Positions 807-62,888 of a DNA stretch of 64,000 nt are shown piece by piece. The notes under the pieces were generated by a model that was not told where the DNA came from, did not search any database, and saw only the letters and a program-made list of their open reading frames with translations. The stretch is from a virus, in IMG/VR virus record IMGVR_UViG_3300031718_000003, positions 1 to 64,000 of that record. One strand, written 5' to 3'. The stretch's first letter is position 1. Each line of letters begins with the position of its first letter. The position numbers and the translations under genes are program-made.

Positions 807-906
807 GAGAAGACTGAATTAAGAGAAAGATGATTTCTTCGGGGTGAGCCAGGCGTCGCAATCGGCAACCCGCCGTTTGCGCCTGTAGACAGGTGCGGGG
901 TAGTTC

Positions 907-1383
907 CTAAATCGGTCCGCGGGCGTTGAAATCGAACGCCAAGCCCCGGCGACGCTTACCCGAGAAGCGCGCCGGAGTTTTCAGGTGAATGGTATCGCCG
1001 ATTTTGAGGGACGAAGAACTGGCGGCGTCGTAGGTTCTGAATCTCTCCTCAGGGGCCATCTGAAGCCGCAACCGCGCCTCGCGTTCTTCTTCCCGATTCT
1101 TTACCAGCACTCCGCCTTTGGCGTGGTCCTCCGGGTCGCGCGGCTCCGGGTAGACCCACTTGGGGAATTCCTGGTCAACGCGAGCCGCTTGCTCTGGTGC
1201 TGCAGCCGCTTGCTCTGGCGCTGCTTCCTGGAACCGTGAGCGGCGGTGGGCTAGTTGCGGATTCGCGGCGGCAAAGATGTCGGCGAAAAGGGGCGTTTCC
1301 TCGGCTGGTTCGACGTGTGGAAACTCCACAACCGGCTGTGCGCCGCCGTACTCGCCGAGCTTCTGAGTGAACATCTCAGCCAT
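907..1383 (-). CDS. hypothetical mosaic protein
   Basis: Shares QEFPKW...DH.KG..LV.N.EEE with 4073..4342; contains a 66-bp segment also present at 36051-36116. Confidence 0.5.
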   Translation of the reverse strand: MAEMFTQKLGEYGGAQPVVEFPHVEPAEETPLFADIFAAANPQLAHRRSRFQEAAPEQAAAAPEQAARVDQEFPKWVYPEPRDPEDHAKGGVLVKNREEEREARLRLQMAPEERFRTYDAASSSSLKIGDTIHLKTPARFSGKRRRGLAFDFNARGPI

Positions 1384-1945
1384 TTTCAGCGCTGCGGAAC
1401 AGATGGTTGCTCCATCTCACTTTCGCCGGATCGGCTTTTATTTCGTCGATCTTGGCGCGCACCGCGTCAATTCCACTTTTCATGGGCTCATTGAACAGGC
1501 GAAACAGAGAGAGCGCATTGTTATAGAAAGAGACGCCCTCACCGTCCGTTCCCCAGCAGGAGCCCAGGCCGCATAGTGACGCGAGAGCCTCCAGGCTTGC
1601 GCCGGGCATGGCTTGCGGATTCCAGTGCTCTACGATCCAAGCAAGCTCCGATTGTTCTGCTGCTCTGGCCTCGGCCTTGGCTTTCAGTTGCTCGATGGCG
1701 TCAGGTTCGGCTTTACGGACTAGCGTCAGCACTGGGGCATCGAACCACGAGCACTCGCCGCCGTCCTCGGTGAATATGAGGGAATAGTGTTGCCGGAGAT
1801 ATTCTGTATTAGGACCATTGCTGTCGCCGTAGAGATCGCTGTACGAGCCCAGTACAAGCGCCTCTCCCTTTCTCCAGCCACTCGAGATTACGAGGTCGCC
1901 GCGCTGAAACTTCTGTGCGTGGGTTAACATGTCAGCCGAGGTCAT
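1376..1945 (-). CDS. hypothetical phage protein
   Basis: ORF overlapping its neighbours in operon fashion. Confidence 0.55.
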   Translation of the reverse strand: MTSADMLTHAQKFQRGDLVISSGWRKGEALVLGSYSDLYGDSNGPNTEYLRQHYSLIFTEDGGECSWFDAPVLTLVRKAEPDAIEQLKAKAEARAAEQSELAWIVEHWNPQAMPGASLEALASLCGLGSCWGTDGEGVSFYNNALSLFRLFNEPMKSGIDAVRAKIDEIKADPAKVRWSNHLFRSAENG

Positions 1946-2171
1946 CCCTCAAATTCCGTTCGAGGACGTCGAGTGCCTGCTCTTTGATCTGTTGTGGTGT
2001 GATTACCGAACCGTAGTTCGCTTTCACCATCCCAACTGCCTCGCAGGCCGCCCAGAGTTCGTCGCCATCAATCCAAAGGAGCATTCGGTCAACGAGTGGA
2101 TCGGTAATGCGGGCATCAACGAAACGCTTGCGCACCTCCTCCTTTAGCTTCTGCGTTGCGTCGTAGGTCAC
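1932..2171 (-). CDS. hypothetical protein
   Basis: ATGA-type coupling with 2168 ORF. Confidence 0.5.
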   Translation of the reverse strand: MTYDATQKLKEEVRKRFVDARITDPLVDRMLLWIDGDELWAACEAVGMVKANYGSVITPQQIKEQALDVLERNLRDDLG

Positions 2172-2730
2172 ATCCCTTCACCCTCTTCGCAGTCGATGGT
2201 CACCTTCACACAGGCGATACGCGGTTCCTCGTAGATGCGCCCTTCTGGCTTGGTGAGGTGTAAAAAGATGCTGCCGTCCTTGAAGACGTTGATCCACACG
2301 TCCCGCTTGATGCGACGCGGCATGTTGACCAGGTCGAGGGTATCCAAACCCGAATAGTATTCGCCCCGCCCCGTCCATCGGCCCAACTGCCACTCGCCGG
2401 AGGTTGGCTTAGCAATAGACCCATGTATTGGATATGCCCCACCAGCATCCGTTGCGTAGATCCGCACCTCGCGTCCGTCCCGCGTGCGCATATGCTTTGA
2501 GAGATCGAGCGTCGGCTTCCCTGGCTCTCCCTTTGGGCCGGGGCAGTCGGTTCCCCCGGCATAGTAGATACCGCAGTTCTTGCAGCGCGCCGTGTCCACG
2601 ATGGTCCATTTGTGGTCCAAGTGTGTAACGACGCATGGATTGGAGTCTGTGATCCATCCGTTGTCACGGAGTTTGCCGCAGTTCTTGCAGCGCAGCTCCT
2701 CGATCGTGGTCCAGTCGTGTTTCACGCGGT
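2168..2730 (-). CDS. hypothetical phage protein with CxxC pairs (start approximate)
   Basis: RTRDGREVRIYATD...YPIHG motif typical of small phage proteins; two CKNCG motifs. Confidence 0.5.
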
Positions 2731-3085
2731 ACCCTCCAGGCGCAAACGGCGGATCGTCGGGGGCCGCGCCTGGCTCGCCCCGAAGCAAAAAGCATTTGTT
2801 TGAAGCTGGCGCCCACCCATCACAGGAAGCCTTGGAAGTTCCGGCTGGAGAAGAGAAAACAGTTAATTAACTATTCCGAGGACATTCAGCCGAACTGAAC
2901 GGCCCTAGATCCTTGCATCCATTCACCGTGCAACCTTACCATTTGTGAAACCTTACAACCTGGAGCCTGTAAAAACCTTGAGCCTTGAAGTTTTGCCAAC
3001 TGCCCCCCAGGAGGGCTTGCAAATTCATTATAATGAACGGGCCGATTCATTATCATGAATTCAAGCGCCCTTGGGGGGCAGCGGC

Positions 3086-3160: not shown

Positions 3161-3541
3161 ACTTGAATTGCCATCAAGTGTTTAGTCTCGATCGCGAGAC
3201 CAGCGTCCCATCTTTCCCGGTTTTTATCTCTGCGTGTCGGGCGTGAATTGTCAAAGACCAAAAATCTGGAACTTCTTTGCTTCGGGGTCTCGACTAGAGG
3301 CCCGCACACGTTGCGGCCTTGTCTGCAGATAATCTCAGGCCCTTATCTGCGTCTCTAGCCAAGTCAATTGCCCTCACCCCTGTTCGTTTGCGCCTGATCT
3401 CTCGACGGTTCCGAACGCAAACGGCGGATTGGACCACAGGCCGCTGAGGATACTCAGCCTTGTCCCCGGATAAGCAGGGACCTCCCGCGTGCCAATGGCC
3501 AGCGACAGCTACTCACCCCGAAGTCATAAAAAAAAACAGCG

Positions 3542-4342: not shown

Positions 4343-4927
4343 TATAGTTCCTTTTTCAAGATTTGGATTGCTTCGGGGTCGGTCAGAAGTCGCTATCGGC
4401 GGGCGTTCGTTTGCGCCTGTTCAGGCCGCCGCTTTCATTCAATAAAGTGGCCCATGTGCTCACAGACGACTGACCGTGGTGGCGCGAGAGCCGGATCCAG
4501 ACCGAGTAAACTCCGCGCGTGCGTCAGCGACTCGGGCGTTACCCTCCAGGATTTTCCGGGGCAGTCCAGGTTAGGCTCAGCGGTCACGTATACCCAGACT
4601 GCAAACGGGTACGCGGATTGATTGCGAGCGGGTTTGGGTCCGCATATAGAACAGCCGTGTTCAACGAGGAATTGGCGCGTGGATGCTGCCGCCTCTTTGG
4701 TTGAGATCATGCCGTCGAGCGTCACGCTCCGCATCCCTTGGTTTCTAGTGCGCACCTACACAGCCTTCGCGCTTCGGCGATGGATTGCTCGGCGGTATCA
4801 AGGGAGCCATCCGCCGCGGCGCGGGCTGCGTCTTTGAGATTCTGCACAATCCCGCGCGTGAGCTGCTCGATGAGCGCGTGCCTGTAGTGCTTGTGGTCGG
4901 GATCGGGAACTAGTGTGAGGTCCGGCA

Positions 4928-5200: not shown

Positions 5201-5287
5201 TTGTATTTTCCTTTGGATTTGCCGGGCGCGCCGAAGTTCAGGCGCAAACGGCGTATGGTCGAGAGAAGAGCCGGGCTGACCCCGAAG

Positions 5288-6876: not shown

Positions 6877-7607
6877 TCAATGCCTGGCTTAATGCCCGGA
6901 CCAGTGCGATTTTCCGCTGCCCTCGTGGGCGACGTGGTCCCGCTTGCCGCTGCGCTTGACCGCGTGGTTCTCGGGGTACTGCTCGGTGTTGGGCTGGGTG
7001 TTTGAGTTGCCGGTTTGCACATCTGGCTTGATGGGCGGCTCTTGGGTTGTGCCATTGTTCATGGTGTCGTAGTCGTTTGCGTTTGATGGGATTTTCATGG
7101 TTTGCTCCAGCGATAAAAGTCTTGATTGCTTCGGGGTGAGTAGTGTGCGCTCTGGACTAATCAGCGTTTGCGCCTGAACAGGAGGGACTGGCCATTGGCA
7201 AGCGGTATCCCGCGGCCACCGGCCAGGAACAGGCGCAAACGGCGGATGGTCGAGAGCGCACGCTACCGACCCCGAAGATAAAAGGAAACAGCTTGTGTTA
7301 ATTGAAGAAATTCAAAGCGACGACTGCTCTTCTTCCCTTATTTTTTTCGCTTAGCATAATTCGGTTTCCGTATTCACTGGGAAGATGTGCAGATTGACCC
7401 GGTAACTCGTCGCGACGCCGGCGAGGGCGTCTTCTGCCTCCTCGCGGGTGGCGTAGTAGTAGAGGTGCTTGGCTAACCGCAAGGCTTCTACCCGATTCCG
7501 CGCAAGTGTAAAGACCACAGGAGGCAGCGCGCCATGCTTGGGTGCGATCTGTTTAGGGGGAACCACCTTGTCTCGATTCTACGCGACTTCGGAAGTGATG
7601 ACCTGAC

Positions 7608-8006: not shown

Positions 8007-8171
8007 TTTGAGTCCGCGTTAGAGGATGAAGAAGGTTTCTTCGGGGTCAGCAGCCAACGCCCTCGTCGATCAACGTTTGCGCCTGTTCAGACAGCACGGA
8101 AGAACGGGCGCAAACGGCGGATCGCCGGGAGCAATCAACTACTCACCCCGAGAAAAGGCTTTAGAGTTAGC

Positions 8172-12144: not shown

Positions 12145-12313
12145 GAGTGGTATGGTTCCTTTGATACAGGCCGCAGATCCCTAATTTCTTAAGGCCAGGT
12201 CTGTTGGGTTGGGATTAGGATTCCAGAAAGATAAAAATGCTTGTTGCTTCGGGGTCAGACACAAACTGCTTTCAGCCCCCAACGTTTGCGCCTGATCTGT
12301 CAGAATAAGAAGC

Positions 12314-14980: not shown

Positions 14981-15106
14981 GGCGAATTACTCAGAAAGGG
15001 GAAAAGCAGTTGATAACCGACACAAAGACAGATGATTTCTTCGGGGTCCGTGGTCGATTGCCCTCCGCGCTCGACGTTTGCGCCTAGAGGGTCTAAACTG
15101 TCAGAT

Positions 15107-15385
15107 ATGCCTTGTTCCGACTACCACGATCACGGGCCGACCCCAGAAGAGGTCCGCCGTCAGGACATCATGTGCCGTCTGGCGTGCGAGTACTGTTCGA
15201 CGCTAAAGACCACGGGTAAGGAAATTCCGCTCTACGCGCGAGAGTGGTGGCAGCAGCACGAACGTGACGATAAGGCTCGAATTGTCACAGAAGCGAAGCG
15301 CGAGCGCGTGCCTCAATTGGTGCGCTCCGGCCTTGCAAAACTGACCCCGAAGGAGTGCGAGGCGCTGGGCCTGCGGAAATTCTGA
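15107..15385 (+). CDS. hypothetical phage protein (moron)
   Basis: MPCSD...WWQQHERDD...GLAKLTPKECEALGL, a common small phage family. Confidence 0.55.
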   Translation: MPCSDYHDHGPTPEEVRRQDIMCRLACEYCSTLKTTGKEIPLYAREWWQQHERDDKARIVTEAKRERVPQLVRSGLAKLTPKECEALGLRKF

Positions 15386-15724: not shown

Positions 15725-15839
15725 TTAAGTTCTTCCGTTTCCTTTTTTCTTCGGGGTCGGCCCGGAACTGCCATGAGCCTCCAACGTTTGCGCTCGGTCC
15801 TTTGGTTTGATACTAATCAAAAGCGAGGAAAACACAGAA

Positions 15840-16806: not shown

Positions 16807-16925
16807 GAGGTGTGTTTCTCCTTTGAGATTTGGGTGAAGATGATTTCTTCGGGGTCAGACAAGACTCGCTCTCGGCCATCAACGTTTGCGCCTAGAGGGT
16901 TTAAACTGAATTCAAGAGTCCCACT

Positions 16926-17711: not shown

Positions 17712-17874
17712 TCAGGTTCTCCTTATTGGAGTTAAGTCTACTTCTTTTCTTCGGGGTCCGTGGTCATCGCACTGATCGGGCGTTCGTTTGCGCCTGATCT
17801 CTCGACCAGTCCGAACGCAAACGGCGGATTGGTGAGAGAGACAGCTACCCCGAAGCCATGATCTTTAGCTTTAT

Positions 17875-18411: not shown

Positions 18412-18909
18412 AACTAAAATCTACTTCATGGCTTCGGGGTCGGTGGGCAGAAACAATCCGCAACCCGCCGTTTGCGCCTGGAGCGTCGAGTACCATTGGA
18501 AACCCCGCTCTGCGCTCATTGCTCCGCGGAGATATTGCTCTCGGACTTTTGGTTCGTTCTTCACGCATGCGTCCAGGAAGTCGTGAATGTGTGCAGTAAG
18601 TTCCTCAAGGGCCGGGGGTCTCGTCAGCCCAGGCGCAAACGTTGAGCGCGGGGAGCAGCGCCGGGCGGACCCCGAAGTAATCGGCATTGCGTTCATCTTG
18701 GAGTTAATTCAGCCTCGCGAGAGCTCTCTCAACACTGGTAACCACGGATCGCTGCCAGTTTTGATCGACCATTTGAAAATAAACGCGCAGCGCTTCAGCC
18801 AAGCTCATGGTTCGAACGGCGCCGATCGAGGAATAGCCACTGCCGAATAAACCGCACCAGTAAGCTTCTGGTGGTTTGCCAACAGGCAGAATGCGGAGGC
18901 TGGGTTTCA

Positions 18910-22902: not shown

Positions 22903-22982
22903 AATGTGTTTTCCTTTTTTGCTTCGTGGTCAGTAGACTGCGCTCTCAGCGATCCGCCGTTTGCGTTCGGACCCGTCAAGAG

Positions 22983-26866: not shown

Positions 26867-27065
26867 GGCAGCGCTTCGCCCCTTTCATTGCAAGCACGAT
26901 CCGGTCATTTGGATATATCGGCAGGGAGGGGTACGTTGTCCCAAAATCCAAATGCTTATGGCTTCGGGGTGAGTCGTTGTCGCACTGAAGCCGTCCGCCG
27001 TTTGCGCCTGATCACTCGAGCGCGCAAAGAACCAGGGCGCGGAGGGATAGCCAAAGCGGTAAGCG

Positions 27066-43912: not shown

Positions 43913-45031
43913 TTATATACATGACTCCCCGAGCCTCTGTATAGATTCTGCCGATGCTCCGACAGCGCTCATCCCGAGCGCAAGGTGATTCAAAGCTGCG
44001 TTGTGATCGCGTCCAAGCGTTAGCCCGCAGGCGCACGCGTGCGTTCGTTCGGCGAGCGTCTTAGGAACGATCTTTCCGCAGCCAGAACACTTCTGAGATG
44101 ACCGCCATGGATTGACCGGCACAGCCCAACGCCCAGCTTGTTCGGCTTTGTACGTCGTGCACCAGATCAATACTCCCCAGGCAGCATCCATGATCGACTT
44201 TGCAAGATTCGACCGCGCCATGTTGCGAATCGTTAAATCCTCATAGGCGATCAAATCGTAGTTTGAAACCAGCCACTTTGAAACGTGATGAATGTAATTC
44301 AGCCGGGCATTCGCAGCTCGCTGATGAGTACGCCGCAGCGCTTCACGGGCGCGTACGCGATTCTTTGAGCGTTTCTGCTTACTGGATAGAGACCGGCTCG
44401 CCGCCGCAATCCGGCGCTCGTGTTTCCGGGTCCAGCGCGGATTCTCGATGGCCGAGCCGTCGCTGAGCGTTGCGAGTGACGTTAAACCTACGTCGATTCC
44501 AACAGGATTCGAGACGGCGCACTTATCCGGCGCGGGGCCGGCGTCGCACACTACCGATGCCGTCCAGCGCTTGCCGCCGCGCTTGATCGAACAAACCTTC
44601 GCGCGCCCTTCAATCTTCCGGCCGCCGCGCGCGCGTATATCACCAACGTTGGGAATCTTAATGGACTTCTCCCGGCACACTGGGAGACCGAACGCGAAGG
44701 AATCGTAGCGCCGCCAGGATCGGAAGCGTGGAAACCCCGGCTTTTCGCCGGCCTTGCATCTCCGGAAGAAAGCTTTGAACGCCCGGTCCAGCCGCCGTAA
44801 CGGGTCGCGTTGGATATCGCACGCCATCCACTGGAATGCCGGATCTTTACGCAACTCCGTCAGTTCGTCCTGTTGATCGCGATATGTGATGCTTTTTCGG
44901 GCCATGCGCCAAGCGTCCCGTCTCTCCTGGAGCGCTGCGTTGTATGTCTCGCAATTGTCAGTCAGGATGCGTTCCAAGGCTGCCGTTTGCGCAGCATTCG
45001 GACGAAGACGGAATTGAAATGTCCTCAGCAT
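43913..45031 (-). CDS. tnpB: TnpB RNA-guided nuclease, no tnpA
   Basis: MLRTFQFRLRP, GFPRFRS, VGIDVGL, IAYEDL, SSQKCSGCG...RDHNAALN; D-E-D intact. Confidence 0.93.
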   Translation of the reverse strand: MLRTFQFRLRPNAAQTAALERILTDNCETYNAALQERRDAWRMARKSITYRDQQDELTELRKDPAFQWMACDIQRDPLRRLDRAFKAFFRRCKAGEKPGFPRFRSWRRYDSFAFGLPVCREKSIKIPNVGDIRARGGRKIEGRAKVCSIKRGGKRWTASVVCDAGPAPDKCAVSNPVGIDVGLTSLATLSDGSAIENPRWTRKHERRIAAASRSLSSKQKRSKNRVRAREALRRTHQRAANARLNYIHHVSKWLVSNYDLIAYEDLTIRNMARSNLAKSIMDAAWGVLIWCTTYKAEQAGRWAVPVNPWRSSQKCSGCGKIVPKTLAERTHACACGLTLGRDHNAALNHLALGMSAVGASAESIQRLGESCI

Positions 45032-45034: not shown

Positions 45035-45352
45035 TCAGTCACGGGAATTATCTATATAAATCCCCTTATTTTCACATCCCACCAACCGTTCCCTCACGGC
45101 AAACAATACTGCTTCCACAACCGAGTGAATCCCAAGTTTCAGGTACAGCCGGCTTCGATGCGTATCAGAAGTTTTAGGTGAAATACCCATACGGAATGCT
45201 ACTTCCTTGTTGCTTAATCCATGGGCTAATAGGATGAGTACCTGGGTCTCTCGTGAGGTTAAGGATAGAACCTTTAAGATCTCGCTGCGTCCTTCTTCGG
45301 GGTGAGCCAGGAGCTGCTCCCGGCGGTCCGCCGTTTGCGCCTGTGGCGTCAT
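45035..45352 (-). CDS. LuxR-type HTH regulator
   Basis: LTSRETQVL...GLSNKEVA...ISPKT..THRSRLYLKLG. Confidence 0.8.
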   Translation of the reverse strand: MTPQAQTADRREQLLAHPEEGRSEILKVLSLTSRETQVLILLAHGLSNKEVAFRMGISPKTSDTHRSRLYLKLGIHSVVEAVLFAVRERLVGCENKGIYIDNSRD

Positions 45353-47823
45353 AGGGTATCCTTTGCATCGATTCTCCTGAGCAATTCACGCGCTCGTATC
45401 ACAGCGGGCGGATCATTACCTGGTTGGTCCCAGACCACACCGGAGCGATATAGGGGTCCCGCGATCCATGCGTCAAAGAGGCTAAGAAGATCACGGAGCG
45501 CCTGGGCCAGCTCCCCGTCAGCGGCTTGTGCCCGTGGTGTCATGCGGTCTCCTTTGCTTCGGGGTCAGTGGTTGTCGCACTGGGGCGATTCGCCGTTTGC
45601 GCCTGTGGCGTTGATGGATCAGGCGCAAACGTTGAGGGCTGACTGCTGCCGTCTACTGACCCCGAAGAAATCAGCGTTCGTGTCTGTGAAATTGTAGTCA
45701 CCTGGGGGTACCGTGTGTGCGTCTGGGCCCCGGATTCCCATTGAATAACCGTGCATTCAGGACACCTACGGATCTTGGAGGGCACTGGGAATACGTCCAT
45801 TTCCGCGCCGCACGCTGGGCACAGGTACGTCATTGGCGCCGCCCTCCTATCAGTCTCCGCACTGTCGCAAGAACCGCGACGGCAATCAGCAGACCGATCA
45901 TCAGATCGGTGTTAGGCGCATTCGGGATCTGACACTCGGCCAGGGCCATCTGACCAAAGATCCCGCCGGTGCACAACAAAATGATGAACACATATTCAGT
46001 CCAATCGCTTTTCATGCGCTCCTCCGCGCTGATAGTTGCCCTGCGGCGAAGCCGTGTTGCCGCACCTGGTGAAATAGGGCGCGCACGGCATTGTCTACCA
46101 CGAGGATGGCTTGGTAATCGCCCTGGTTCCAGCCGCACTGCGCCAGGCGCTGGGCCAAGTAGTGATTGACGCTGAGCAGAAAAGAGAGTGCGCTGAATTC
46201 GTTGCCATCGAATAGCAGGGAGTAGCGCAGCCACGCTATGTCGTCGCTGGGGCGGACATCGGGAACCTGCATCTGGCGACGAGCGCGGGCTTGATTGAAT
46301 TTCGTAAAATCGTTCGGCATGATTACTTCGCTTTCCGCCGCAGTGCGGCTTTCTCTCGCATCCGTTCTTCCGCTACACGCCGGGCTGCGAGCCACAGGGC
46401 AGCATCGTAGGCCAGGGTATAGCGCTGGCGCGTGCCCTTAAACCGCATCTCCATGTGCCGGGGATGCAGCGTCACCAGGAGCGGCTTGCCGTGGTCGATG
46501 AAGGCGGTTTCTCGGGTGAGTGGGGAGTCTGGTTTGATCAGGGTCATGAATCAACTTCTCTTTTCTTCCGGGTCAGTGGGCGGAAGCTGTGGCCGGTCCG
46601 CCGTTTGGGCCTGATCCGTCTTTCGCGGCCACCACGGAGAGTTGATGATCGGGTTGAGCGCGCATTGCATCCACCGCGGCTCCTGACCATTGATTTCCAT
46701 CTGGCAAGGGGCAAAGCGATCGGAGATCAGGGCGCATTCGTTACCACCCTGTCCCATGAATCGCCCAGCCATTAGCGCCACGTGGGACTTTCCGTAAAAA
46801 TGGCAGCTCATGCTATACCTCCGTCTCATCCGGCTCGACTTCCAGGATCTCGCCTACCGCCAGCAGGCGCTCGATATCCAGTTCCGCCTCGTGGGCGATC
46901 CTCGCGACGCGGATTCGGGCTTCTTCTCCGGTGTCGGCATCGATGTTCAACCAGACTGTCAGATTTACGAGAACTTTCATCGTCCTTCCCCCACACAGAG
47001 ACTGAGTTCCTTCTTTAACGGCGACGCGGGCGAGATCCTTTCCGCAAAGCCAGGCGGAAAAATATAGCACGGCGGGACGATGTTGAAGCGCGATCCGCAT
47101 TCCGGGTTGGCGCACATGATGTTCTCGCACATGCCGCCCTCCGGACCATGGAAAAAGCCATCCTTCCCATGACAGTCCGGGCATTTGCCGTTCGTGAAAA
47201 GACTCATCCTCAGGGCGTCCTCCTCCACGGCAGACTCTTCAGGCGCAAACGGTGGAGCACTGAGGGTGGAATCCTGGCTCACCCCGAAGCCATGAGCATT
47301 TTTATGTTTCACTGAACCTCCTTGGATTGACGAATTGTACGGCTAACAGGGTAAGGCAGCGCAATCTGCCCCTTCAACTCGCTCACCTCGAATACCCGAT
47401 GCGTTCCACGGCGATACGCCCGGCGGACGGCCTCCACGTGGCGCCGGCAAAGATTGGCACAGCCGGTTCCCCAAAAGCAGTGCTTGGCCGCTGGCTCGTG
47501 GCCATTGTCGAAGGCGCAGCGGTCGGTGTGGCGCGAGGGTTTCAAGTAGCAGGGCATCATAGCTGCACCTTGAAATTCGGCCCTGCTGTCTCGGGATGCT
47601 CGACCACGTACTCGGCTTGGGCCTTGGTGCAGGGATGGTAAACCACGACGACCGGTCCGTCCGTGCATACGTGGGATTTGTTGTTATACGCCCGCTCCAT
47701 CTGCCTCACGATGTCGTCGTCATCGAGCAACACCTCGAACAGCCCTTCGATGCGCCGGTTCATGCGGTCGGTGCAGCCGAATTGGAGATGAATGCGGCGG
47801 AGATTGCGTTTTTCTGGCATAAG

Positions 47824-48270
47824 CTAACTCCCTTTTTCTTCGGGGTCAGCCGGGTTCTTCTCCCGGCGGTCCGCCGTTTGCGCCTGGGGTTTCCAGTGGT
47901 AGATGTGGCCCTCGAAAGGCAGGCGCCCCGCCCAGAAGCCGATCATGTCCAGGAAGGAGTTGAAGCCGTCCCGGCGAGCGAGCAGCTCCTTTTCGGAGTC
48001 ATCGAGCGCCACGCCGTTAATGTATACGTCCGCATAGCAGCCGCGCGGGCCCGGCGCCATCCGGATTTCCTCCACCTTCACGCAGAGCGCCCGAAGCAGT
48101 AGTCGCGCTCCCTTGCGCCGCAGCCCCGTATACAGATGCATCGTGCCGCCGACGAGGTCTATCAAGCCTGGGCGTCCCCTGCGCGAGCGGCGCGGAGCGC
48201 GGATGGTATGCGTCTTCCGTCCGTCCAGGATGAACGGCACGAAGCGCGGCTGGAAATTGTAGATGCCCAT
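47824..48270 (-). CDS. ASCH/PUA-like domain protein
   Basis: F...ILDGRKTHTIR...LYTG.R...LARRDGF. Confidence 0.65.
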   Translation of the reverse strand: MGIYNFQPRFVPFILDGRKTHTIRAPRRSRRGRPGLIDLVGGTMHLYTGLRRKGARLLLRALCVKVEEIRMAPGPRGCYADVYINGVALDDSEKELLARRDGFNSFLDMIGFWAGRLPFEGHIYHWKPQAQTADRREKNPADPEEKGS

Positions 48271-49482: not shown

Positions 49483-50438
49483 TATTTGGCCTCCTTTTCA
49501 GCGATCCCGACGAGCTCGCGGTATGCCTTTACTGCGTCTTCGGTTGAGGTGAATTGGGCGGCATTGGTCAATGACACGCCGGTGGCGCCGTGGTAGTGAT
49601 TCAAAACAGCGAAGTACTGGACTTCACCGACACGTTCACGGAGTTGATCCATGAGTACGATGAATTGCCGCTTGCCTGTCCATGGCTTAACAAAGGCAAC
49701 GCTTTTTGCTTCCGGGTGAGTGGTCGATTGCTGTGCGCTATTCGCCGTTTGGGCCTGAACTTTCGCTTTCAATTCGGCTTCGGCTTTATTGAACGCTTCG
49801 ACCTTGGCGTCCGCCACGGCCTTCTGGGCTGCGGTTGGGGTTACCGCCGGGCCGTCGGTGGCTTCCGGGTCGGAGGCGTTACGGCGGCGGCGCGTTTCCG
49901 TGGGCGGGGGATTATTGTCCCGGCCCTTGTAAACCTCCATGCCGATCCCCAGATGGGAAGCGATCTTGGTCAGGGCGTCGGTGCAGGCGCCCTTGTAGGC
50001 GTCGCCGCGATCCTCGTTGTCATTGCCGCCGTAGGCTTCCATGTGTATGCCGTAGCGCGGGACTGTGAAGTACGCCTTCATGACCACCATGGTGGCGGGA
50101 CGCTCGATGGTCTTTCCATCCTTGGTGATCGTCTTGGTGAATGCCTGGGACTCGACGAATTCGTACACTTCGTGCCATCCGCCTGGCCCGAAGACTTCGT
50201 TCAGCCGCTCGATGACGTACGCGGGCTTGATGCTGGACAGGTAGGATTTGGTGGGGTGCGGGGTAATCGCTCGCGCCGGCAGCGGGGCATTCAACTTCTC
50301 GATCATCGCGGGGGGTACTGGTTCCGGCTGTGCTGGAAGGACCACAGGGCGCGGCTGCTTCTCCTCGTAGACTTTCATGATGGAGGCTTCAAGCATGCGC
50401 TCCATATCGGATTTCGGGGTGAGTTCCAGGCTGCTCAT
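49482..50438 (-). CDS. Rad52/Sak-family single-strand annealing protein
   Basis: YVIERLNEVFGPGGW...AYKGACTDALTKIASHLGIG. Confidence 0.85.
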   Translation of the reverse strand: MSSLELTPKSDMERMLEASIMKVYEEKQPRPVVLPAQPEPVPPAMIEKLNAPLPARAITPHPTKSYLSSIKPAYVIERLNEVFGPGGWHEVYEFVESQAFTKTITKDGKTIERPATMVVMKAYFTVPRYGIHMEAYGGNDNEDRGDAYKGACTDALTKIASHLGIGMEVYKGRDNNPPPTETRRRRNASDPEATDGPAVTPTAAQKAVADAKVEAFNKAEAELKAKVQAQTANSAQQSTTHPEAKSVAFVKPWTGKRQFIVLMDQLRERVGEVQYFAVLNHYHGATGVSLTNAAQFTSTEDAVKAYRELVGIAEKEAK

Positions 50439-53059: not shown

Positions 53060-53898
53060 CCCACGAACCCAAATGCCGTATCTGTTCGTGCACCGAGGAT
53101 CACGCCTGCGCCGGTGGGTGCTCCTGGGTGCATACGCCGCTCGATCGGAAGTTAGGGCCGATCTGCAGCACGTGCATCGGATTGATGGAGAAGTTGGCGG
53201 TGTTCACCGAGGATAGCCGGAACGGGAATCTGGCCGCTGTGATCCGGGCGTACAAGGAAGTGACGGCGCGGGCGCGGGCGCGGACAGACCAGGAAAGGCG
53301 GGAGGATAAACGGCATGAATCACGTTTACGAAGTGAAGTTCGAGACACGGTACACGGGATGGGGATGGCTGGAGGATAGTGCCCGCGTTCTCGCAAATGG
53401 AAGCGCCACGAAGGCCGTTGAGATGGTTCGGCGGCACGAGATGAAAGAGTCTTTTGAGGACTTCACCAAGGGCCACAAGCGCGTTATTCGCCGCGCCATT
53501 GGTTTTAGGATGACGGGCGTCCAACAGTTGACCCATGTCGACTACTAACGGAAGTGACGCGCGAGGAGATCGCGACATTCGAGCGCGAGCTACGAAAGGC
53601 CGGCGCATGACGAAGGCAAAAAGGCAGTCACCTCTTATCAGTTTGGCACGCGCGGCACGAAATAATCCGGGCGCGGCCTTGCAATTGGCTGCGATCAAAT
53701 ACCTGAAGGCCAAGGGCTGGAATGTGATTTTGATTGGTGAGATCGAGATTCAGACCTGGGACGCCGGAGATGCAGCCAAAGGGAAACACAAGCTGGCCGT
53801 CGGTTTCCAAGGTATCGGCGCTCAATCCTCTAGGCGCAAACGGCGGATCGGTGAGGGCAGCATCCGACCGACCCCGAAGCCATGAAGGAGACGAAATA

Positions 53899-54669: not shown

Positions 54670-56469
54670 GTGACTGACCTAATGCTAAAGATCTCAGACG
54701 ATCTCTCTTTGCCAAGAAATGCTGTAACCGAAAAACTGGCATGGATCGGAAGGACTGGTTCTGGGAAAACCTATGGAGCCACGAAAGCGGCTGAGCAGAT
54801 GCTCGCTGCTGACGCTCAAGTCGTTACTCTCGATCCTGTTGGAGTGTGGTACGGATTGCGTCTGGCTGCGGATGGTAAATCTCCAGGGCTGACATTGCCA
54901 GTATTCGGCGGCCTCCATGGAGACATTCCGCTTGAGCCCGGAGTTGGTGCGATGATGGCCGATTTAATCGTAGATCGTGGTCTATCTGCTGTTCTGGATG
55001 TGAGCCAGTTTGAACACGACACCGAGAAGGCGCGATTCGCCGGCGACTTCGCTAGCCGCTTCTTCTTCAGGAAAAAGGCGCGGCCATCTGCCGTTCATAT
55101 CTTCATTGAGGAAGCGCAGGAATTTTGCCCGGAAGAGCCGCGACGAGGAGAAGAGAACATGGTGCATGCGTTCACCCGCATGTGGAAACTCGGGCGTAAC
55201 TTTGGCATTGGCGGCTCCCTAATTACGCAGAGGCCGCAGGAAGTTAGTAAGAAGGTGCTGAACCTGGCGGAATGTGTTTTTGCTTTTCAGTTAACGGGTC
55301 CCCATGAGCGTAAGGCACTAGAAAAGTGGATAGCGGAAAGAGGCATCGACGAGGATATCGGGGCGATTCTGCCGAAACTCACGGTCGGGCAAGTTCGCGT
55401 CTGGAGCCCTGCATGGCTAAAGATATCGAAGACGATACAGATTTTACCCAAATCTACGTTCGACGCATCGAGCACTCCGGGAGTCGGCAAGCGTGCGGCC
55501 GTACGAGAACTCGCACCGATCGATCTTGAAAGATTGCGCGTCGATATGGCCGCGACCATCGAAAAAGCCAAGGCTGAAGACCCGCGTGAGCTGCAACGCC
55601 AGGTCCGCGAGCTGAAAGCGAAGATCGCGCAGATGGATAAGGCCGCACCGGTTACGAAAGGCGGCGCGCCGGCAGACGCGGAACAGTTAAAGCGCGAATT
55701 CGACCGTGGGGCGAATTCAGTGAAGGGCCTCCTGGCTAAGGAGCTGCGCGCCTGCTCGAAGACCGCTGCAGCCATCCAGCCCGCAACGCTTGCCGCACTG
55801 CGCGACATGGCGGCAGCGGCGGCACGGGCCATAACACATGTCGAGCAAGTCCAGATGCCATCCATGCCGAGCCTCGAAGGTGTCATCGAGCAAGCGAAGG
55901 CAACACGCTCGCCAGCGGTTCTCCCGGTGCGCACAAAAGTTCCCGTGGAGCGCACGAAAATGGCCGCCGCGAACGGAGAGGCATCCAAAATCGGCAATAC
56001 CGGTCTTCGGCGCATGCTGATCGCTCTCGCGCAGCGCCGTAACGGGATCTCCACCAAGCAGCTTGGGGTGCGAGCGGGGATCTCTAGTAAAAGCGGAACC
56101 TTCGGGACATACCTCGGGCGTGGAAGGGCCAATGGCTGGATCGCGGGAGAACGCGGGCAGTTGAAAATAACCGAGGCGGGAGTTGCGGCGCTGGGAAATT
56201 ACGAGCCGCTTCCGGAGGGTAGGGAACTGCTGGAATATTGGCTGAACGAATTAGGGGATAGCGGGGCCGGGCGCATGCTTAGCGCGCTCGCTGAACGCTA
56301 CCCGCAGGGTTTTACGGCGGAGGAGCTGGGGAAACAAGCGGATATCAGTTCTGCGAGTGGCACGTTTGGGACGTACCTGGGGAGATTGCGGTCGTTGGAG
56401 CTGATTAGTGGGTCGAGGAGTGAGTTGAAAGCTAGTGATGAGTTTTGCCTATGGCTTCGGGGTCGGTAG
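54670..56469 (+). CDS. HerA/DUF87-like P-loop ATPase with two C-terminal wHTH-like repeats
   Basis: GRTGSGKT, IFIEEAQEF, GRNFGIG..LITQRP; duplicated SGTFGTYLGR. Confidence 0.8.
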   Translation: MTDLMLKISDDLSLPRNAVTEKLAWIGRTGSGKTYGATKAAEQMLAADAQVVTLDPVGVWYGLRLAADGKSPGLTLPVFGGLHGDIPLEPGVGAMMADLIVDRGLSAVLDVSQFEHDTEKARFAGDFASRFFFRKKARPSAVHIFIEEAQEFCPEEPRRGEENMVHAFTRMWKLGRNFGIGGSLITQRPQEVSKKVLNLAECVFAFQLTGPHERKALEKWIAERGIDEDIGAILPKLTVGQVRVWSPAWLKISKTIQILPKSTFDASSTPGVGKRAAVRELAPIDLERLRVDMAATIEKAKAEDPRELQRQVRELKAKIAQMDKAAPVTKGGAPADAEQLKREFDRGANSVKGLLAKELRACSKTAAAIQPATLAALRDMAAAAARAITHVEQVQMPSMPSLEGVIEQAKATRSPAVLPVRTKVPVERTKMAAANGEASKIGNTGLRRMLIALAQRRNGISTKQLGVRAGISSKSGTFGTYLGRGRANGWIAGERGQLKITEAGVAALGNYEPLPEGRELLEYWLNELGDSGAGRMLSALAERYPQGFTAEELGKQADISSASGTFGTYLGRLRSLELISGSRSELKASDEFCLWLRGR

Positions 56470-56552
56470 TCCGCTCTATCAGCGGGCGTTCGTTTGCGCC
56501 TGATCCCTCGACCACAGGAGCGCAACAGTTAAAATGAGGGAGATTAGTAAAA

Positions 56553-60346: not shown

Positions 60347-60820
60347 ATGACGATGGCTAACTGGATAGATGAGTTATGCGAGGAGATTCTCCGGGATGGC
60401 CGCCACAAAAGCGTGGCGGAGGAATTGCGATTACACCGCGCCGGGGTACTGGAGCAGGAGGGCCGGTTTTTCTTTGAAGAGCTGAGGCGAGAGGTTAAAG
60501 ACGGGCTGCCGACCATAGGCACGCGCCTGGGCCTATCCCCAGCGGACCTCCGATTCGAGGGAAAGGACGATTTCTTCCAGATAACAAACCATTCTCACTA
60601 CCCAGTGGTCACCGTCAAGGCCGAATACATGCTGAAGCGGGTTTTGCTCAATATCAAGAGGAAGCAGGCTGATGTCCGCACTCCAGCGGAAGAGACGCGG
60701 GATTCTATCGATTTTTGTGTCAAGGCTGACGATGAGCTTTACTTCTGCCACAAAGGAACGACACTCCCGGGAATTGATGAGGCGGTAAAATTGGTATTCA
60801 GGCCGCTATTTTCCACCTGA
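60347..60820 (+). CDS. IS1 passenger, hypothetical
   Basis: Divergent from the transposase. Confidence 0.55.
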   Translation: MTMANWIDELCEEILRDGRHKSVAEELRLHRAGVLEQEGRFFFEELRREVKDGLPTIGTRLGLSPADLRFEGKDDFFQITNHSHYPVVTVKAEYMLKRVLLNIKRKQADVRTPAEETRDSIDFCVKADDELYFCHKGTTLPGIDEAVKLVFRPLFST

Positions 60821-60839
60821 TCCTTCAGTGCCCGTTAGC

Positions 60840-61229
60840 CTATTCGCCGGGCTGTTTGGCTGCTTGTAGCGCTTTGCGCCGGGCCGCCGCCGATACACTA
60901 TCGATCTCAGACTGAGGCGCGCCATTAGCTTTCAACGCAACGATCCGCAAGGCCTCCGGCACAGGAATCGCAAGATTCTCGGGTTCCTGATAGAACCGGT
61001 CTACGGCTTTTACTAGCTCAACCATGCTGAGCGGTTCTGGAATGTACGGGCGTGACGGAGAACGAGCTGCCCGTAACCCATCCAGAAAACCGACTAGGTA
61101 ATTCCCCTTGTCCATGAAAACCTGCCAGTGCCGCCCGTTGCACATGCCATTCGTAAAGGGCGGAATGGCTGGCTTTTCCTGAGCTACAGAGAGCAGAGTT
61201 AACGCAAGCAGAATCAAGGCAGGTTTCAT
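60840..61229 (-). CDS. IS1 passenger, secreted small protein
   Basis: Signal peptide; NG..W...YL.GF.DG...VDRFYQ.PEN..IP. Confidence 0.6.
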   Translation of the reverse strand: MKPALILLALTLLSVAQEKPAIPPFTNGMCNGRHWQVFMDKGNYLVGFLDGLRAARSPSRPYIPEPLSMVELVKAVDRFYQEPENLAIPVPEALRIVALKANGAPQSEIDSVSAAARRKALQAAKQPGE

Positions 61230-61486
61230 CGGGGATCTTTACCCGTTTTTCCCCACCGCGCCTGCGCAGCTCGCTTGGCCGAAGCCTTGCGCTGCGCTGG
61301 GCTGAGCCTTGCGTTCAAGGTGGCCGCGCCCTTTAGCCCGCCACGCCGCCCCATTTCGCGCATGATCTGAGAGACGGTGGAGCGGTCATCGAGATCTACG
61401 GGCAGTTCGGAGCCGGTGCTCTTAGCTACGATGGATGCAGCAAACTGATTGATGTCCTGCGATTTTGTCCGCGTGCGCTTGGGCAT
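61226..61486 (-). CDS. IS1 passenger, KGG-type basic protein
   Basis: DINQFA..IV...MGRRGGLKG...LSP.QR...AKRAAQARW; TTGACG-17-CATACT promoter inside the TIR end. Confidence 0.65.
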   Translation of the reverse strand: MPKRTRTKSQDINQFAASIVAKSTGSELPVDLDDRSTVSQIMREMGRRGGLKGAATLNARLSPAQRKASAKRAAQARWGKTGKDPR

Positions 61487-62888
61487 GACAGCTTCAAGTA
61501 TGGCAGGTTACGGGCCAACGTCAAGCCTGTGGAAATTCAAAAGACCCCACTACCGGCGAAGGAAGTGAGACTAGGAAGCTGTATCCGGCTCCCCGCGTTC
61601 ACATTCGTTGCAATACCCAGCTCACGGGCGAAGGAAGTGAGACCGATCAGTGCAAGGCGTACTCGCCGAATCACAAGGGGTTGCAATACCCAGCTCACGG
61701 GCGAAGGGAGTGAGACACGAAATCGGCAAGCGGCTCGGAGTGAGCGCGCGGCAGTTGCAATACCCAGCTCACGGGCAAAGGGAGTGAGACCTAAACGGCG
61801 TTCCAGTTCCGGCGGAATGCACTCCGTTGCAATACCCAGCTCACGGGCAAAGGGAGTGAGACGTGTCAAGGCGTGGCTGAAAGCAGTCAAGCTGCTCGCC
61901 AGTTGCAATACCCAGCTCACGGGCGAAGGAAGTGAGACAGCATCACGACCGTAAGGCCGGTTGCAATATCCAGCTCACGGAAGAAGGAAGTGAGACGCTC
62001 AATCTCATGTCGCTGTGACGCCCGGATAACTGTTGCAATACCCAGCTCACGGGCGAAGGGAGTGAGACAAGATTTAGAAACAGGTTTAACTGGAAGCAGG
62101 AAGGGTTGCAATACCCAGCTCACGGGCGAAGGAAGTGAGACAATATGGTGCTGCTTCGCTTTTCAGAAGTTGCAATATCCAGCTCACGGGAGAAGGGAGT
62201 GAGACGAGACGAAAGAATCGCAGCAACAGCGGGGGTGGGGGTATTGCAATACCCAGCTCACGGGCGAAGGAAGTGAGACTATTATGCCCCTCGGCATGTG
62301 TGAAAAGACCAACCGTAGTTGCAATACCCAGCTCACGGGCGAAGGGAGTGAGACCGTTAAAAGCATAGGCTAGGGGAAGACGGATTTTCGTTGCAATACC
62401 CAGCTCACGGGCGAAGGGAGTGAGACCGGAGCATATCCCGCTGAAGGTTCTTTGGAACGGAGTGTTGCAATACCCAGCTCACGGGAGAAGGGAGTGAGAC
62501 TCGGCAGATTTCCAGCGGGACCAAAGCCCGCAGAGCGGTTGCAATACCCAGCTCACGGGCGAAGGGAGTGAGACACATCTTGAGGGTTTCACGACAGAAG
62601 AGATGCCAACAGGTTGCAATACCCAGCTCACGGGCGAAGGAAGTGAGACAAACAAGTGCCCAGGTCAACAAAAATGTTTGGGGAGTTGCAATACCCAGCT
62701 CACGGGAGAAGGAAGTGAGACGTGGTCAACCGTTCCGAACGCAAACGGCGGACCGCTGAAGGCAGAGCCGGGCTGACCCAGGAAGAATTATGTGTGCGTT
62801 GCCAATTGGGGTCAAATGGGTCTTCATCCGGCCAGCGATCATACAAGAAAATGTCATCCTGTAAATTCACGGCATAGCTTGGCATAGT

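Follow-up and report, generated by a model that had tools for sequence, protein, structure and literature searches.

A previously undescribed 46-bp element, consisting of two asymmetric boxes that flank a mosaic core, is present in about 45 copies in an uncultured soil phage. The element is restricted to phages, its copies are polar with respect to gene ends, and its boxes are maintained in place. We tentatively suggest that it is a dispersed protein-binding DNA site that gates intergenic regions in the manner of stoperators or P1 operators, a reading that we consider possible rather than probable.

Anatomy and occurrence of the element

The window analyzed comprises 64,000 nucleotides (positions 1 to 64,000 of IMG/VR record IMGVR_UViG_3300031718_000003). 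Within it, box 1 (CAGGCGCAAACG, at most one mismatch) and box 2 (ACCCCGAAG, exact) each have 34 matches, versus shuffle means of 0.73 and 0.62, respectively. Paired, the boxes define 37 full copies in the entire 74,759-bp virus record (26 on the minus strand and 11 on the plus strand), of which 34 lie in the window, and an nhmmer profile adds about 10 to 14 half, truncated, or long copies (Table 1). The density is one copy per 1.6 to 2 kb. Thus, the two-box repeat that a preliminary description had reported about once per 1.6 kb on both strands is confirmed, while the interpretation given there is partly supported.

Measured from GCGC to GAAG, full copies are 41 to 47 bp long, mostly 45 to 46 bp. 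Across 109 distinct copies from at least five phage genomes, both boxes are near-invariant, and the spacing is 45 to 47 bp in 99 of these copies. Box 1 includes CAAAC and is invariant over 12 nt. The cores form subfamilies, their left and right halves assort freely, and near-identical cores occur at distant sites; AGRGC at positions +19 to +21 (z = 11.8) and CGAYA (z = 6) are enriched, and GCGA is found in 28 of the 109 cores. Long variants, in which 55 to 90 extra bases separate the boxes, are multicopy and kept in relatives, and the hairpin module in their center is found either way round with respect to the boxes. Some copies form back-to-back pairs with spacers of 14 to 60 nt, and about 27 of the 37 are single arms, whose boxes are no less perfect than those in pairs.

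At least four other contigs of soil phages, whose structural genes are unrelated, have the same element. A scan of 185,579 prokaryote species genomes yielded just 11 single matches, which is the chance level, and the element was found neither in cultured phages or plasmids nor in portal relatives at 50% identity. The element is therefore phage-borne, as proposed earlier, and not a host REP sequence, and it matches no Rfam family. Likewise, the IS1595, IS1-like, and TnpB genes have neither copies nor such ends, in agreement with the preliminary description, and the IS, recombinase, and CRISPR-Cas regions are free of copies.

Table 1. Element copies and candidate reader genes in the window
Feature	Position	Strand	Remarks
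Box 2 end, copy cut by record start	8..33	+	23 nt from stop of 42-806(-)
Full copy	837..882	-	Box 1 GCGCAAACG to box 2 ACCCCGAAG; 30 nt before start of 42-806
Full copy	2740..2785	+	Box 2 GCCCCGAAG
Long variant	3280..3396	-	Boxes ~100 nt apart; insert folds strongly
Long variant	3416..3523	+	~70-nt TTGACCA...TGGTCAA hairpin module
Full copy	4371..4416	-	Start codon 28 nt on
Full copy	5242..5287	+	Antisense; abuts stop of 5288-6094(-)
Full copy	7129..7173	-	Back-to-back with 7233(+)
Full copy	7233..7277	+	Back-to-back with 7129(-)
Full copy	8039..8082	-	Back-to-back with 8101(+)
Copy, variant box 2 ACCCCGAGA	8101..8157	+	Back-to-back with 8039(-)
Full copy	12247..12291	-	Upstream of scaffold-like gene; orthologous copy in L073
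Full copy	15039..15083	-	Upstream of portal gene; orthologous copy in L073
Solitary box 2	15344..15352	+	
Full copy	15749..15793	-	Edge of ~770-bp segment that L073 lacks
Full copy	16847..16891	-	Orthologous copy in L073
Full copy	17749..17793	-	Back-to-back with 17815(+)
Short copy, 41 bp	17815..17855	+	Box 1 ACGCAAACG; back-to-back with 17749(-)
Full copy	18432..18477	-	Core almost that of 35791(+)
Full copy	18633..18677	+	
Full copy	22922..22966	-	Boxes ACGCAAACG / ACCACGAAG
Truncated copy	24529..24562	-	Box 1 and shortened core
Full copy	26962..27007	-	Upstream of NusG paralog gene
Full copy	29913..29959	-	Orthologous copy in L064
Long variant with hairpin module	30912..31022	-	Directly upstream of sigma gene
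Full copy	35240..35285	-	
Full copy	35497..35541	-	
Full copy	35791..35836	+	Core almost that of 18432(-)
Long variant	36029..36128	-	Box 2 CCCCCGAAG
Solitary box 1	37001..37021	+	
Full copy	38211..38256	+	Box 1 CCGCAAACG; between convergent genes
Full copy	38484..38529	-	Box 2 GCCCCGAAG
Full copy	39050..39094	-	Start 20 nt on, GGAGG in the gap
Full copy	41560..41605	-	Box 1 ACGCAAACG
Full copy	45295..45340	-	
Full copy	45557..45602	-	Back-to-back with 45623(+), spacer 20 nt
Full copy	45623..45667	+	Back-to-back with 45557(-)
Copy, both boxes changed	46565..46610	-	GCCCAAACG / ACCCGGAAG
Full copy	47243..47289	+	
Full copy	47838..47883	-	Within final codons of 47824-48270
Degenerate copy	49709..49754	-	Inside Rad52-like gene; both box changes as in 46565
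Full copy	53834..53879	+	Plus-strand start 19 nt on
Full copy	56455..56499	-	Overlaps HerA-like gene stop; box 1 toward Cas12/CRISPR/IS1 block
Copy, degenerate box 2	62740..62779	+	15 nt past CRISPR array
Candidate reader: NusG paralog	26342..26866	-	UpxY/LoaP/RfaH-like
Candidate reader: 214-aa tyrosine recombinase	27911..28555	+	Xer/FimB-like; homologs in G004, L064
Candidate reader: sigma-70-family factor	30272..30946	-	Region 2 nearest FliA/WhiG
Candidate reader: 175-aa ORF	43395..43922	-	No known family

Placement, polarity, and conservation in place

Gene interiors are avoided, with 5 of 64 copies inside genes versus 39.4 expected (P = 2e-19). The preliminary description held that the element persists inside coding sequence; copies do overlap the last 20 or so codons of upstream open reading frames (ORFs), but the copy at 49709 is the only one deep within a confident gene. 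Because these overlaps use all three reading frames, the recurrent peptides pointed out earlier are a by-product. In 48 of 63 copies, the nearer gene boundary is the one on the box 2 side (median, 25 versus 123 nt; P = 7e-6), and this polarity is robust to the gene-call threshold. The distance between box 2 and a start or stop is about 25 to 50 nt, and box 1 faces 120 to 260 nt of weakly coding, variable DNA. On our reading of the gene map, copies are present in about two-thirds of the long gaps between the lytic genes, and their spread takes in structural, replication, and regulatory genes.

The boxes are intact at orthologous junctions (three in L073, three in L063, and at least two in L064), at which the cores bear no relation to each other and identity between the flanking genes is just 66 to 76%. 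Since the boxes are invariant where cores and flanks have diverged, this indicates that they are under purifying selection and that the element is maintained in place. Relatives differ in the DNA behind box 1 (12295-12787 versus L073, 71524-71935 versus L063, and 29960-30270 versus L064), while the gene on the box 2 side is conserved.

We infer that box 1 and box 2 may be two sequence-specific contacts on double-stranded DNA, about 37 bp apart, that would be read by a phage-encoded DNA-binding protein or complex. Lying at the outer edges of longer intergenic regions, with box 1 inward and box 2 toward the adjoining gene end, the copies could act as polar gates (operators or roadblocks) that control transcription as it passes from intergenic control regions to the gene units on either side. 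Being 46-bp stretches of shared homology, the copies might also provide points of module exchange between coinfecting phages. Against such gates, (i) antisense copies are left with merely a minor job, (ii) the conserved, multicopy long variants speak against a spacing that must be kept strictly on duplex DNA, and (iii) the core subfamilies, the near-identical cores far apart in the genome, and the patchy occurrence among phages whose structural genes are unrelated resemble a spreading element.

In line with the last point, small intergenic modules that move or recombine (MITE-, Correia-, or BIME-like) might have the 46-bp unit as their terminal arm, or the unit might be a site for the small tyrosine recombinase of the phage, an explanation that we regard as somewhat unlikely. 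Box 2 would be the outer terminus and box 1 subterminal, with variable cargo between outward-facing arms, and single arms would be one-ended remnants. The outermost position of box 2 and the weakly coding DNA behind box 1 fit this explanation, as do the differences in box 1-side DNA between relatives, the conserved ends with a variable middle, the freely assorting core halves, the back-to-back pairs, and the multicopy long variants with their hairpin module in either orientation. Furthermore, the Cas12/CRISPR/IS1 block (56.5 to 62.7 kb) is flanked by the box 1 sides of 56455(-) and 62740(+), phages whose structural genes are unrelated share the element while portal relatives at 50% identity lack it, and a small tyrosine recombinase co-occurs with it in G000, G004, and L064. 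However, a relic would not keep its boxes invariant after about 30% flank divergence, nor are the boxes of single arms any worse than those of pairs. The unit lacks the dyad symmetry or inverted binding arms of a classical tyrosine recombinase core site, no target site duplications were seen by eye, and no transposase is associated with it. Alignment ends at copies (7 of 40) are not enriched over the gene boundary baseline (20%), and the alternation of copy orientation is not significant (P = 0.05 to 0.2).

Transcription, RNA structure, and candidate readers

Relative to local transcription, the copies are oriented 40:24, a weak bias that is 11:9 in the second-best genome, G004. While 39 of 64 copies point toward a same-strand start, 19 are antisense between codirectional genes and 6 have convergent genes on either side. 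Sense copies are found 10 to 45 nt before starts and inverted copies 4 to 20 nt past stop codons. The examples cited in the preliminary description (837, 4371, 7129, 16847, 17749, 39050, 45557, 47838, and 53834) do end 13 to 40 nt before a start, but only about 60% of copies precede starts, and a strand-specific sense code is not borne out by the orientations. Because orientation is nearly random with respect to transcription, a DNA site accounts for the element better than a promoter or a signal in RNA would.

Neither sigma-70-type promoters nor intrinsic terminators are found above chance in positions 1 to 20000, and the phage must therefore rely on other signals. Conceivably, although we consider it improbable, the element is a portable promoter and leader, with box 1 as the -35 and a semiconserved mid-box (AGRGC or GCGAC) as the -10 element for the FliA/WhiG-like phage sigma factor. 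Box 2, which resembles the sigma-28 -10 element (consensus, ryCGAwrn), would be the conserved first 10 or so nucleotides of the transcript and could cause a promoter-proximal pause at which the UpxY/RfaH-like NusG paralog that the phage encodes would load. Besides the lack of canonical promoters, the copies that point toward starts, CAAAC in box 1, and the enriched core motifs suit such a promoter, and a copy precedes the sigma gene in four of four genomes, while the sigma clade closest to that of the phage is, within IMG/VR, confined to element-bearing contigs. However, 25 of 64 copies, equally conserved, would as promoters send antisense transcripts into well-supported genes at their 3' ends. 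A weak -10 (GCGA) combined with an invariant -35 is the reverse of normal promoter sets, the noncoding DNA upstream of box 1 would be unnecessary, genes of all functional kinds have the element, and no NusG paralog homolog was seen in the other element-bearing contigs. Box 2, in which a likeness to the sigma-28 -10 element had been noted earlier, cannot be the -10 element of the downstream gene, because a Shine-Dalgarno sequence begins 3 to 7 nt past box 2 in at least eight copies; the remark that the upstream box is too distant holds, as the separation exceeds that of a sigma-70-family -35/-10 pair.

Folding of both strands revealed no structure (mean z, -0.14 and -0.07 for single copies and -0.29 and -0.02 with flanks), there is no excess of palindromes, and the covariation check that had been suggested found no Watson-Crick covariation in the element. 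With these signals null, action at the RNA level appears very unlikely. Sense and inverted copies would pair (12 plus 9 bp, with an internal loop) into a hairpin or panhandle that is processed (RNase III-like) or stabilizes the message; in another version, a translational regulator would bind to a leader that has no structure. Such pairing or processing is how Correia elements and T7 intercistronic sites act, and the positions of inverted copies after stops and sense copies before starts, the back-to-back pairs, and a pairing level of box 1 slightly below that of core-shuffled controls (0.42 versus 0.46; P = 0.001) would be compatible with it. Most copies are single, however, cores are unmatched between partners that flank one unit or are adjacent in a pair, pairing across 1 to 9 kb is unlikely, and many copies are translated as upstream ORF ends. 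Taken together, the weak orientation bias, the lack of folding and covariation, the phage-only occurrence, and the polarity toward gene ends argue against a simple promoter, an RNA motif, or a host REP sequence.

Among the readers proposed in the preliminary description, the sigma factor and the recombinase co-occur with the element in several contigs, and their tie to it extends no further; G004, L064, and L068 encode sigma homologs, and a copy lies before each of these genes. The 175-aa protein is the sole one common to the three largest element-bearing contigs (G000, G004, and G002), and its lack of a recognizable fold weighs against a protein-read gate.

Comparison with known systems

REP, BIME, and REPIN sequences, Correia elements, and pneumococcal BOX elements belong to chromosomes, are either strongly palindromic or delimited by terminal inverted repeats, and reach hundreds of copies per bacterial genome. 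Like them, the element is extragenic, single or in inverted doublets, and mosaic, with short and long variants and subfamilies, but it is nonpalindromic, limited to phage contigs, and far denser (one copy per 2 kb). The attC sites of integrons have complementary ends (R''/R'), a hairpin fold, and co-oriented cassettes, and IntI has an extra domain. All of these features are missing here, although the element shares with attC a location between a stop and the next start, conserved ends with a middle of variable length, and a nearby tyrosine recombinase gene.

The PeSLs of T4-type phages are mobile cassettes of a sigma-70 early promoter and a stem-loop terminator, co-oriented with genes (PMC2839356, PMC4122927). 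Both they and the element are short conserved intergenic cassettes that edge variable DNA, with modules exchangeable by recombination between copies, but the element has no hairpin or sigma-70 promoter and occurs in both orientations. In cluster K mycobacteriophages, the 13-bp SAS lies directly upstream of starts, includes the ribosome-binding site, and is oriented the same way in nearly all copies, while ESAS forms an inverted repeat of 17 bp, and the function of both is still unknown (PMC3203893). The likeness consists of an asymmetric motif just before many starts, kept at orthologous genes, for which an extended bipartite form exists; the boxes of the element, however, do not form an inverted repeat, and 40% of copies face no start.

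Phage P1 has dispersed asymmetric C1 operators. A monomeric, two-domain repressor that reads an asymmetric genome-wide site and blocks elongation is an established mechanism, and the stoperators of the cluster A mycobacteriophages L5 and Bxb1 are 13-bp, single-box sites that lie nearly all in one orientation relative to transcription (PMC9283540). The element is 46 bp long (about 75 bp with flanks), with two boxes and a mosaic core, and occurs in both orientations, which weighs against the gate reading; it also differs in having no known repressor and in being common to phages with unrelated virion genes. Nevertheless, like stoperators and P1 operators, it is an asymmetric repeat, present in some 20 to 40 copies per phage genome and mostly in short intergenic spaces. 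The likeness that we propose would extend to duplex DNA that is read by one phage protein and acts on elongating RNA polymerase in an orientation-dependent manner.

Anatomy of the element

The preliminary description claimed a repeated element of two boxes, and this holds: box 1 (CAGGCGCAAACG, with at most one mismatch) has 34 matches against 0.73 expected, and box 2 (ACCCCGAAG) has 34 against 0.62 expected. When the boxes, which stand 26 to 30 nt apart, are paired, the record yields 37 full copies that span 41 to 47 bp from GCGC to GAAG, and 34 of these lie inside the window; about 14 further partial copies were found by a profile search. Among the 109 distinct copies from all genomes, 99 are 45 to 47 bp long. 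Because weaker conservation extends past both boxes, over ~15 nt to the left of box 1 (C-TCGA-N-CAG) and over 3 to 12 nt to the right of box 2 ((A/C)(A/C)A(T/A)nA, sometimes GCATTT), the whole unit measures about 75 nt.

Two parts of the core are semi-conserved, namely, a mid-box (AGRGC) located 19 to 21 nt after the start of box 1 (z = 11.8) and the core start, which is most commonly GGCGGAYCGCYG, with TTGAG... and AACGCCCG... as alternatives. The left-half and right-half types of the core assort freely, and near-identical cores occur at distant copies. In one pair of copies (15039 and 16847), both flanks are alike and the cores are unrelated; at least 17 nt of the left flank and at least 13 nt of the right flank are common to the two, which looks as if the core alone had been replaced. 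A box 1 variant, GCCCAAACG (GCCC...), and a box 2 variant, ACCCGGAAG (...CCGG...), co-occur and are confined to two other copies, where they may reflect coupled change or common descent. A compensatory change between the boxes would involve these two copies only and a helix of at most 2 bp.

In five long variants, box 1 and box 2 are separated by 55 to 90 extra, strongly folding bases, and three of the five have in common a mid-element hairpin module of about 70 nt (TTGACCA...TGGTCAA). In the contig L066, the module stands the other way round with respect to the boxes, which would suit a separate insertion or a segment able to invert by itself. Five back-to-back pairs of copies, with spacers of 14 to 60 nt, were also found.

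Known RNA families and covariation, among the checks proposed in the preliminary description, gave nothing on the element. The Rfam scan at gathering thresholds found a group I intron and a tRNA only, and a permissive scan of 15000-18800, which holds eight copies, gave no match to any of them. On both strands, folding energies are indistinguishable from those of dinucleotide shuffles (z ~0), and no Watson-Crick covariation was seen between columns, the mutual information of which reflects sub-families, not base pairs. Box 2 pairs no more than it does when the cores are shuffled, box 1 pairs slightly less, and short core palindromes are at chance level (best perfect stem, 3.43 bp, versus 3.47 bp in shuffles). 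A structured RNA or DNA and a known RNA family are ruled out by these results, and pairing of inverted copies at the RNA level, which has no structural support of any kind, is very unlikely. Likewise, a coding motif is excluded because the lengths of 45, 46, and 47 bp are not 3-periodic and the ORFs entering copies use all three frames.

Polarity and conservation at gene boundaries

In several genomes, 64 copies were placed on gene maps made by a self-trained gene caller and partly checked by family matches. The interior of confident genes is avoided (5 copies, compared with 39.4 expected; P = 2e-19). Between co-directional genes, 32 copies are in sense and 19 in antisense, and 7 and 6 copies lie between divergent and convergent genes, respectively; therefore, orientation relative to transcription is only weakly biased (40:24), and it is about even (11:9) in G004, another element-bearing contig. 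The box 2 side is closer to the gene boundary than the box 1 side in 48 of 63 copies, with median distances of 25 nt and 123 nt, respectively (P = 7e-6), and this result is stable at three gene-score thresholds. Box 2 is found 10 to 45 nt before starts, often with a Shine-Dalgarno sequence just 3 to 7 nt downstream of it, or, in inverted copies, 4 to 20 nt past stops, and 120 to 260 nt of weakly coding DNA adjoin the box 1 side. In the gene map, read by eye, about two-thirds of the long intergenic regions that separate lytic genes have a copy at one or both edges. The Cas12/CRISPR/IS1 block as a whole is enclosed by the box 1 sides of two copies. This polarity, in which box 1 points to the intergenic interior and box 2 to the gene, is a new fact that every model of the element must explain.

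The first 12 copies alternate perfectly in orientation; tiling of the genome by inward-facing pairs was rejected as overall not significant (P = 0.05 to 0.2). One inward-facing pair contains a single gene, which encodes a Cpn10 (GroES-like) domain and a zinc ribbon.

At junctions common to three other contigs (L073, L063, and L064), where the flanking genes are 66 to 76% identical in DNA, the element occurs at the same place with intact boxes and an unrelated core. Intact boxes with unrelated cores cannot be neutral, and therefore the boxes are either selected in place or continually homogenised. In three cases, the box 1-side DNA differs between relatives and the box 2-side gene is conserved. 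Homology break-points are not significantly enriched at copies (7 of 40, against a gene-boundary baseline of 20%), and the contigs of the probable source DNA run, in which the repeats showed nothing beyond unitig breaks and short-sided joints, gave no evidence of rearrangement. A segment of the contig L077 is 98% identical to the window and diverges 10 nt past box 2 of a plus-strand copy, beyond which a fragment of an IS1595-family transposase is found.

Coordinates of the features discussed (positions of this phage unless a contig is named)
Feature	Coordinates	Strand
Copies with near-identical cores	18432; 35791	minus; plus
Copies 15039 and 16847, alike in both flanks	15022-15094; 16830-16900	minus
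Copies with both box variants	46565-46610; 49709-49754	
Hairpin module sites, window	3434-3514; 30921-31000	
Hairpin module site, record	72868-72947	
Hairpin module sites, other contigs	L064:3262-3310; L066:2818-2884	
Copies enclosing the Cas12/CRISPR/IS1 block	56455; 62740	minus; plus
Box 1-side DNA differing between relatives	12295-12787; 71524-71935; 29960-30270	
Segment 98% identical to L077	4972-5297 (L077:318-632)	
Copy at the L077 divergence	5242	plus
Sigma factor gene	30272-30946	minus
Recombinase gene	27911-28555	plus
NusG paralog gene	26342-26866	minus
175-aa ORF	43395-43922	minus
Cpn10-domain gene	17875-18411	minus
Major head protein gene	8998-10877	
C-terminal part of major head protein (phrog_283)	8998-9801	
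Group I intron	10470-10688	minus
Type V CRISPR system	56553-58488; 61607-62722	
terS-related site (61 kb)	61717-61753	
terS-related sites	23186-23222; 24061-24097; 23698-23732	

Distribution of the element and candidate readers

As a repeat, the exact bipartite pattern is absent from all 185,579 prokaryote species genomes scanned. Eleven single matches, about the number expected by chance, were found in unrelated taxa, and none was confirmed by the profile; thus, a host REP is ruled out, in agreement with the earlier view that the element is phage-borne. Cultured phages and plasmids gave only chance matches (E = 0.4 to 0.5), and no CRISPR spacers match the element. The motif had not been recognized as a described one, and indeed the box sequences appear in the literature only as unrelated primers.

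The contigs G004 (37.6 kb) and G002 (34.8 kb) carry 19 or 20 copies and 7 copies, respectively, and the element is also present in two other soil viral or metagenome contigs (L068 and L059) and in many fragments of the closest relatives of this phage (65 to 83% protein identity). This phage, G004, and G002 have no structural genes in common; what they share is limited to a few small genes of early or regulatory type. The element is absent from phages with a portal 50% identical to that of this phage. In one such portal relative, L045 (IMGVR_UViG_3300014495_000069), dispersed repeats of two different families occur in both orientations, namely, (GGGTNCT)n blocks of ~35 nt in about 12 copies and a repeat of ~100 nt in six to eight copies.

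The IMG/VR virus record, 74,759 bp long and rated 91% complete, has no cultured relatives (portal identity, <40%); the window covers its first 64 kb. The genes of this phage include a P22-like portal, a T4-type large terminase, and a major head gene that contains a group I intron (88.7 bits in Rfam); tRNA-Asn, a Rad52-like annealase, an HNH endonuclease, two IS transposases, and TnpB are also encoded. A type V CRISPR system is also present, composed of a 578-aa Cas12/TnpB-like effector, a 3-repeat mini-array directly after it, and a main array of 17 repeats of 37 nt with spacers of ~36 nt. One spacer has a perfect match (35/35) in terS, a gene of the phage itself that is flanked by two identical solitary variant repeats.

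Four proteins are candidate readers of the element; the links are co-occurrences in a small sample, which is not evidence of recognition. The sigma factor (closest to FliA/WhiG in region 2), the NusG paralog (closest to UpxY, LoaP, and RfaH), and the 214-aa tyrosine recombinase (closest to Xer and FimB-type enzymes) all score below family cut-offs. Sigma homologues (37 to 50% identity) exist in G004, L064, and L068, and in all four genomes, counting this phage, the sigma gene has a copy immediately upstream. In IMG/VR, this sigma clade is found in element-bearing contigs only, and distant relatives (29 to 44% identity) occur without the element; closer representatives (P0005 to P0009) are present in a library of 1.8 billion proteins. 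The recombinase is common to G004 and L064 (64 to 83% identity). Of the readers named in the preliminary description, the sigma factor and the recombinase thus co-occur with the element in a few contigs; no NusG paralog was seen in the other element-bearing contigs, themselves incomplete. The 175-aa ORF, the sole protein common to this phage, G004, and G002, has no family, no recognizable fold, and no usable Atlas match.

Possible functions and comparison with known systems

The invariance, asymmetry, and fixed spacing of the two boxes, the lack of folding, the near-random orientation to transcription, the selection in place, and the strict location at junctions point to an element that would be recognized as duplex DNA by a protein, rather than to a signal in RNA or a promoter sufficient on its own. 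Box 2 had been likened to a sigma-28-type -10, with box 1 judged too distant for a -35. The latter judgment stands, since the boxes are 26 to 30 nt apart instead of 11 to 18 bp, and the element does not conform to a promoter of the sigma-70 family: 25 of the 64 copies face no same-strand start, and in at least eight copies the Shine-Dalgarno sequence is only 3 to 7 nt past box 2, where transcription would start 6 to 9 nt after a -10. Reading box 1 and the mid-box as the promoter leaves a weak -10. No phage RNA polymerase is encoded in this genome, and sigma-70-type promoters and intrinsic terminators are not above chance in positions 1-20000 of the window. A promoter plus leader for the FliA-like sigma, in which box 2 would be the conserved beginning of the transcript and perhaps the place where the NusG paralog loads, suits the sense copies well; however, it cannot account for the 25 copies pointing at gene 3' ends and agrees poorly with the weak -10 and the additional non-coding DNA upstream, and we consider it improbable.

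We tentatively prefer, at less than an even chance, a model in which the element would serve as an operator or roadblock, dispersed and polar, placed where transcription leaves the intergenic control regions; in principle, it would be akin to stoperators (PMC9283540) and P1 operators. Module exchange at shared element homology would then come as a by-product, as it does for PeSLs (PMC2839356, PMC4122927). The principal rival, possible if rather doubtful, is that the unit is an arm of mobile or recombining intergenic modules. It accounts for the polarity, the sub-families, the long variants, and the patchy distribution better than the operator model, but the perfection of many single arms is left unexplained. 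There is also a slim chance that the copies are sites of phage-borne gene-module exchange, run by the small Xer/FimB-like recombinase or by an unrecognized enzyme, e.g., the 175-aa protein. Mid-element crossovers would create the freely assorting core halves, and intergenic modules, accessory genes such as the Cas12-CRISPR block, and the hairpin module would move or invert between unrelated soil phages. If this were true, the system would be integron-like with a new kind of site, offering a mechanism for module shuffling among uncultured soil phages. If one protein reads the element, the two together would make a compact, orthogonal part for boundaries or gates and would help to explain how uncultured soil phages are transcribed without recognizable promoters and terminators.

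Few genome-wide phage cis elements are known outside well-studied hosts, and each of those described (stoperators, SAS, and PeSLs) brought to light a level of gene control or genome plasticity that had not been foreseen. REP, BIME, and REPIN sequences are hairpin-forming imperfect palindromes abundant in the host chromosome, whereas the present element is not palindromic and has only chance-level single matches in species genomes; the RAYT (Y1 HUH) transposase expected for them was not among ~50 proteins scanned, a subset of the ORFs. MITEs have paired terminal inverted repeats; back-to-back pairs exist here, but ~27 of 37 copies are single, and no target-site duplication was seen by eye in three pairs. 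A match to IS ends would have told against a phage-specific code, but no copy of IS1595, IS1, or TnpB, the possible autonomous partners, has ends resembling the element, and an IS end is ruled out. Integron attC sites have complementary R''/R' boxes (RYYYAAC / GTTRRRY) and a folded bottom strand, whereas the boxes found here are not complementary and form no hairpin, and the phage recombinase, with its best matches to Xer-type enzymes, scores 58 bits against the IntI model TIGR02249 (cut-off, 265). The RfaH ops/JUMPStart consensus, GGCGGTAGnnTG, acts on the non-template strand of the leader; the core start GGCGGAYCGCYG matches it at 7 or 8 of 12 positions, in a part that is only semi-conserved, which falls short of that family. 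PeSLs combine a sigma-70 early promoter with a stem-loop terminator, and the element has neither. Like stoperators and dispersed operators, it is an asymmetric, many-copy, intergenic site conserved in a phage group, but a single orientation to transcription is expected of stoperators. In kind, the element is a genome-wide interspersed cis element of phage that fully fits none of the described families. It differs from all of them in being unusually long and well conserved, bipartite, with a mosaic core, common to soil phages whose virions are unrelated, and flexible in orientation although polar towards gene ends, a tie to gene-unit boundaries that is seen in none of the known types.
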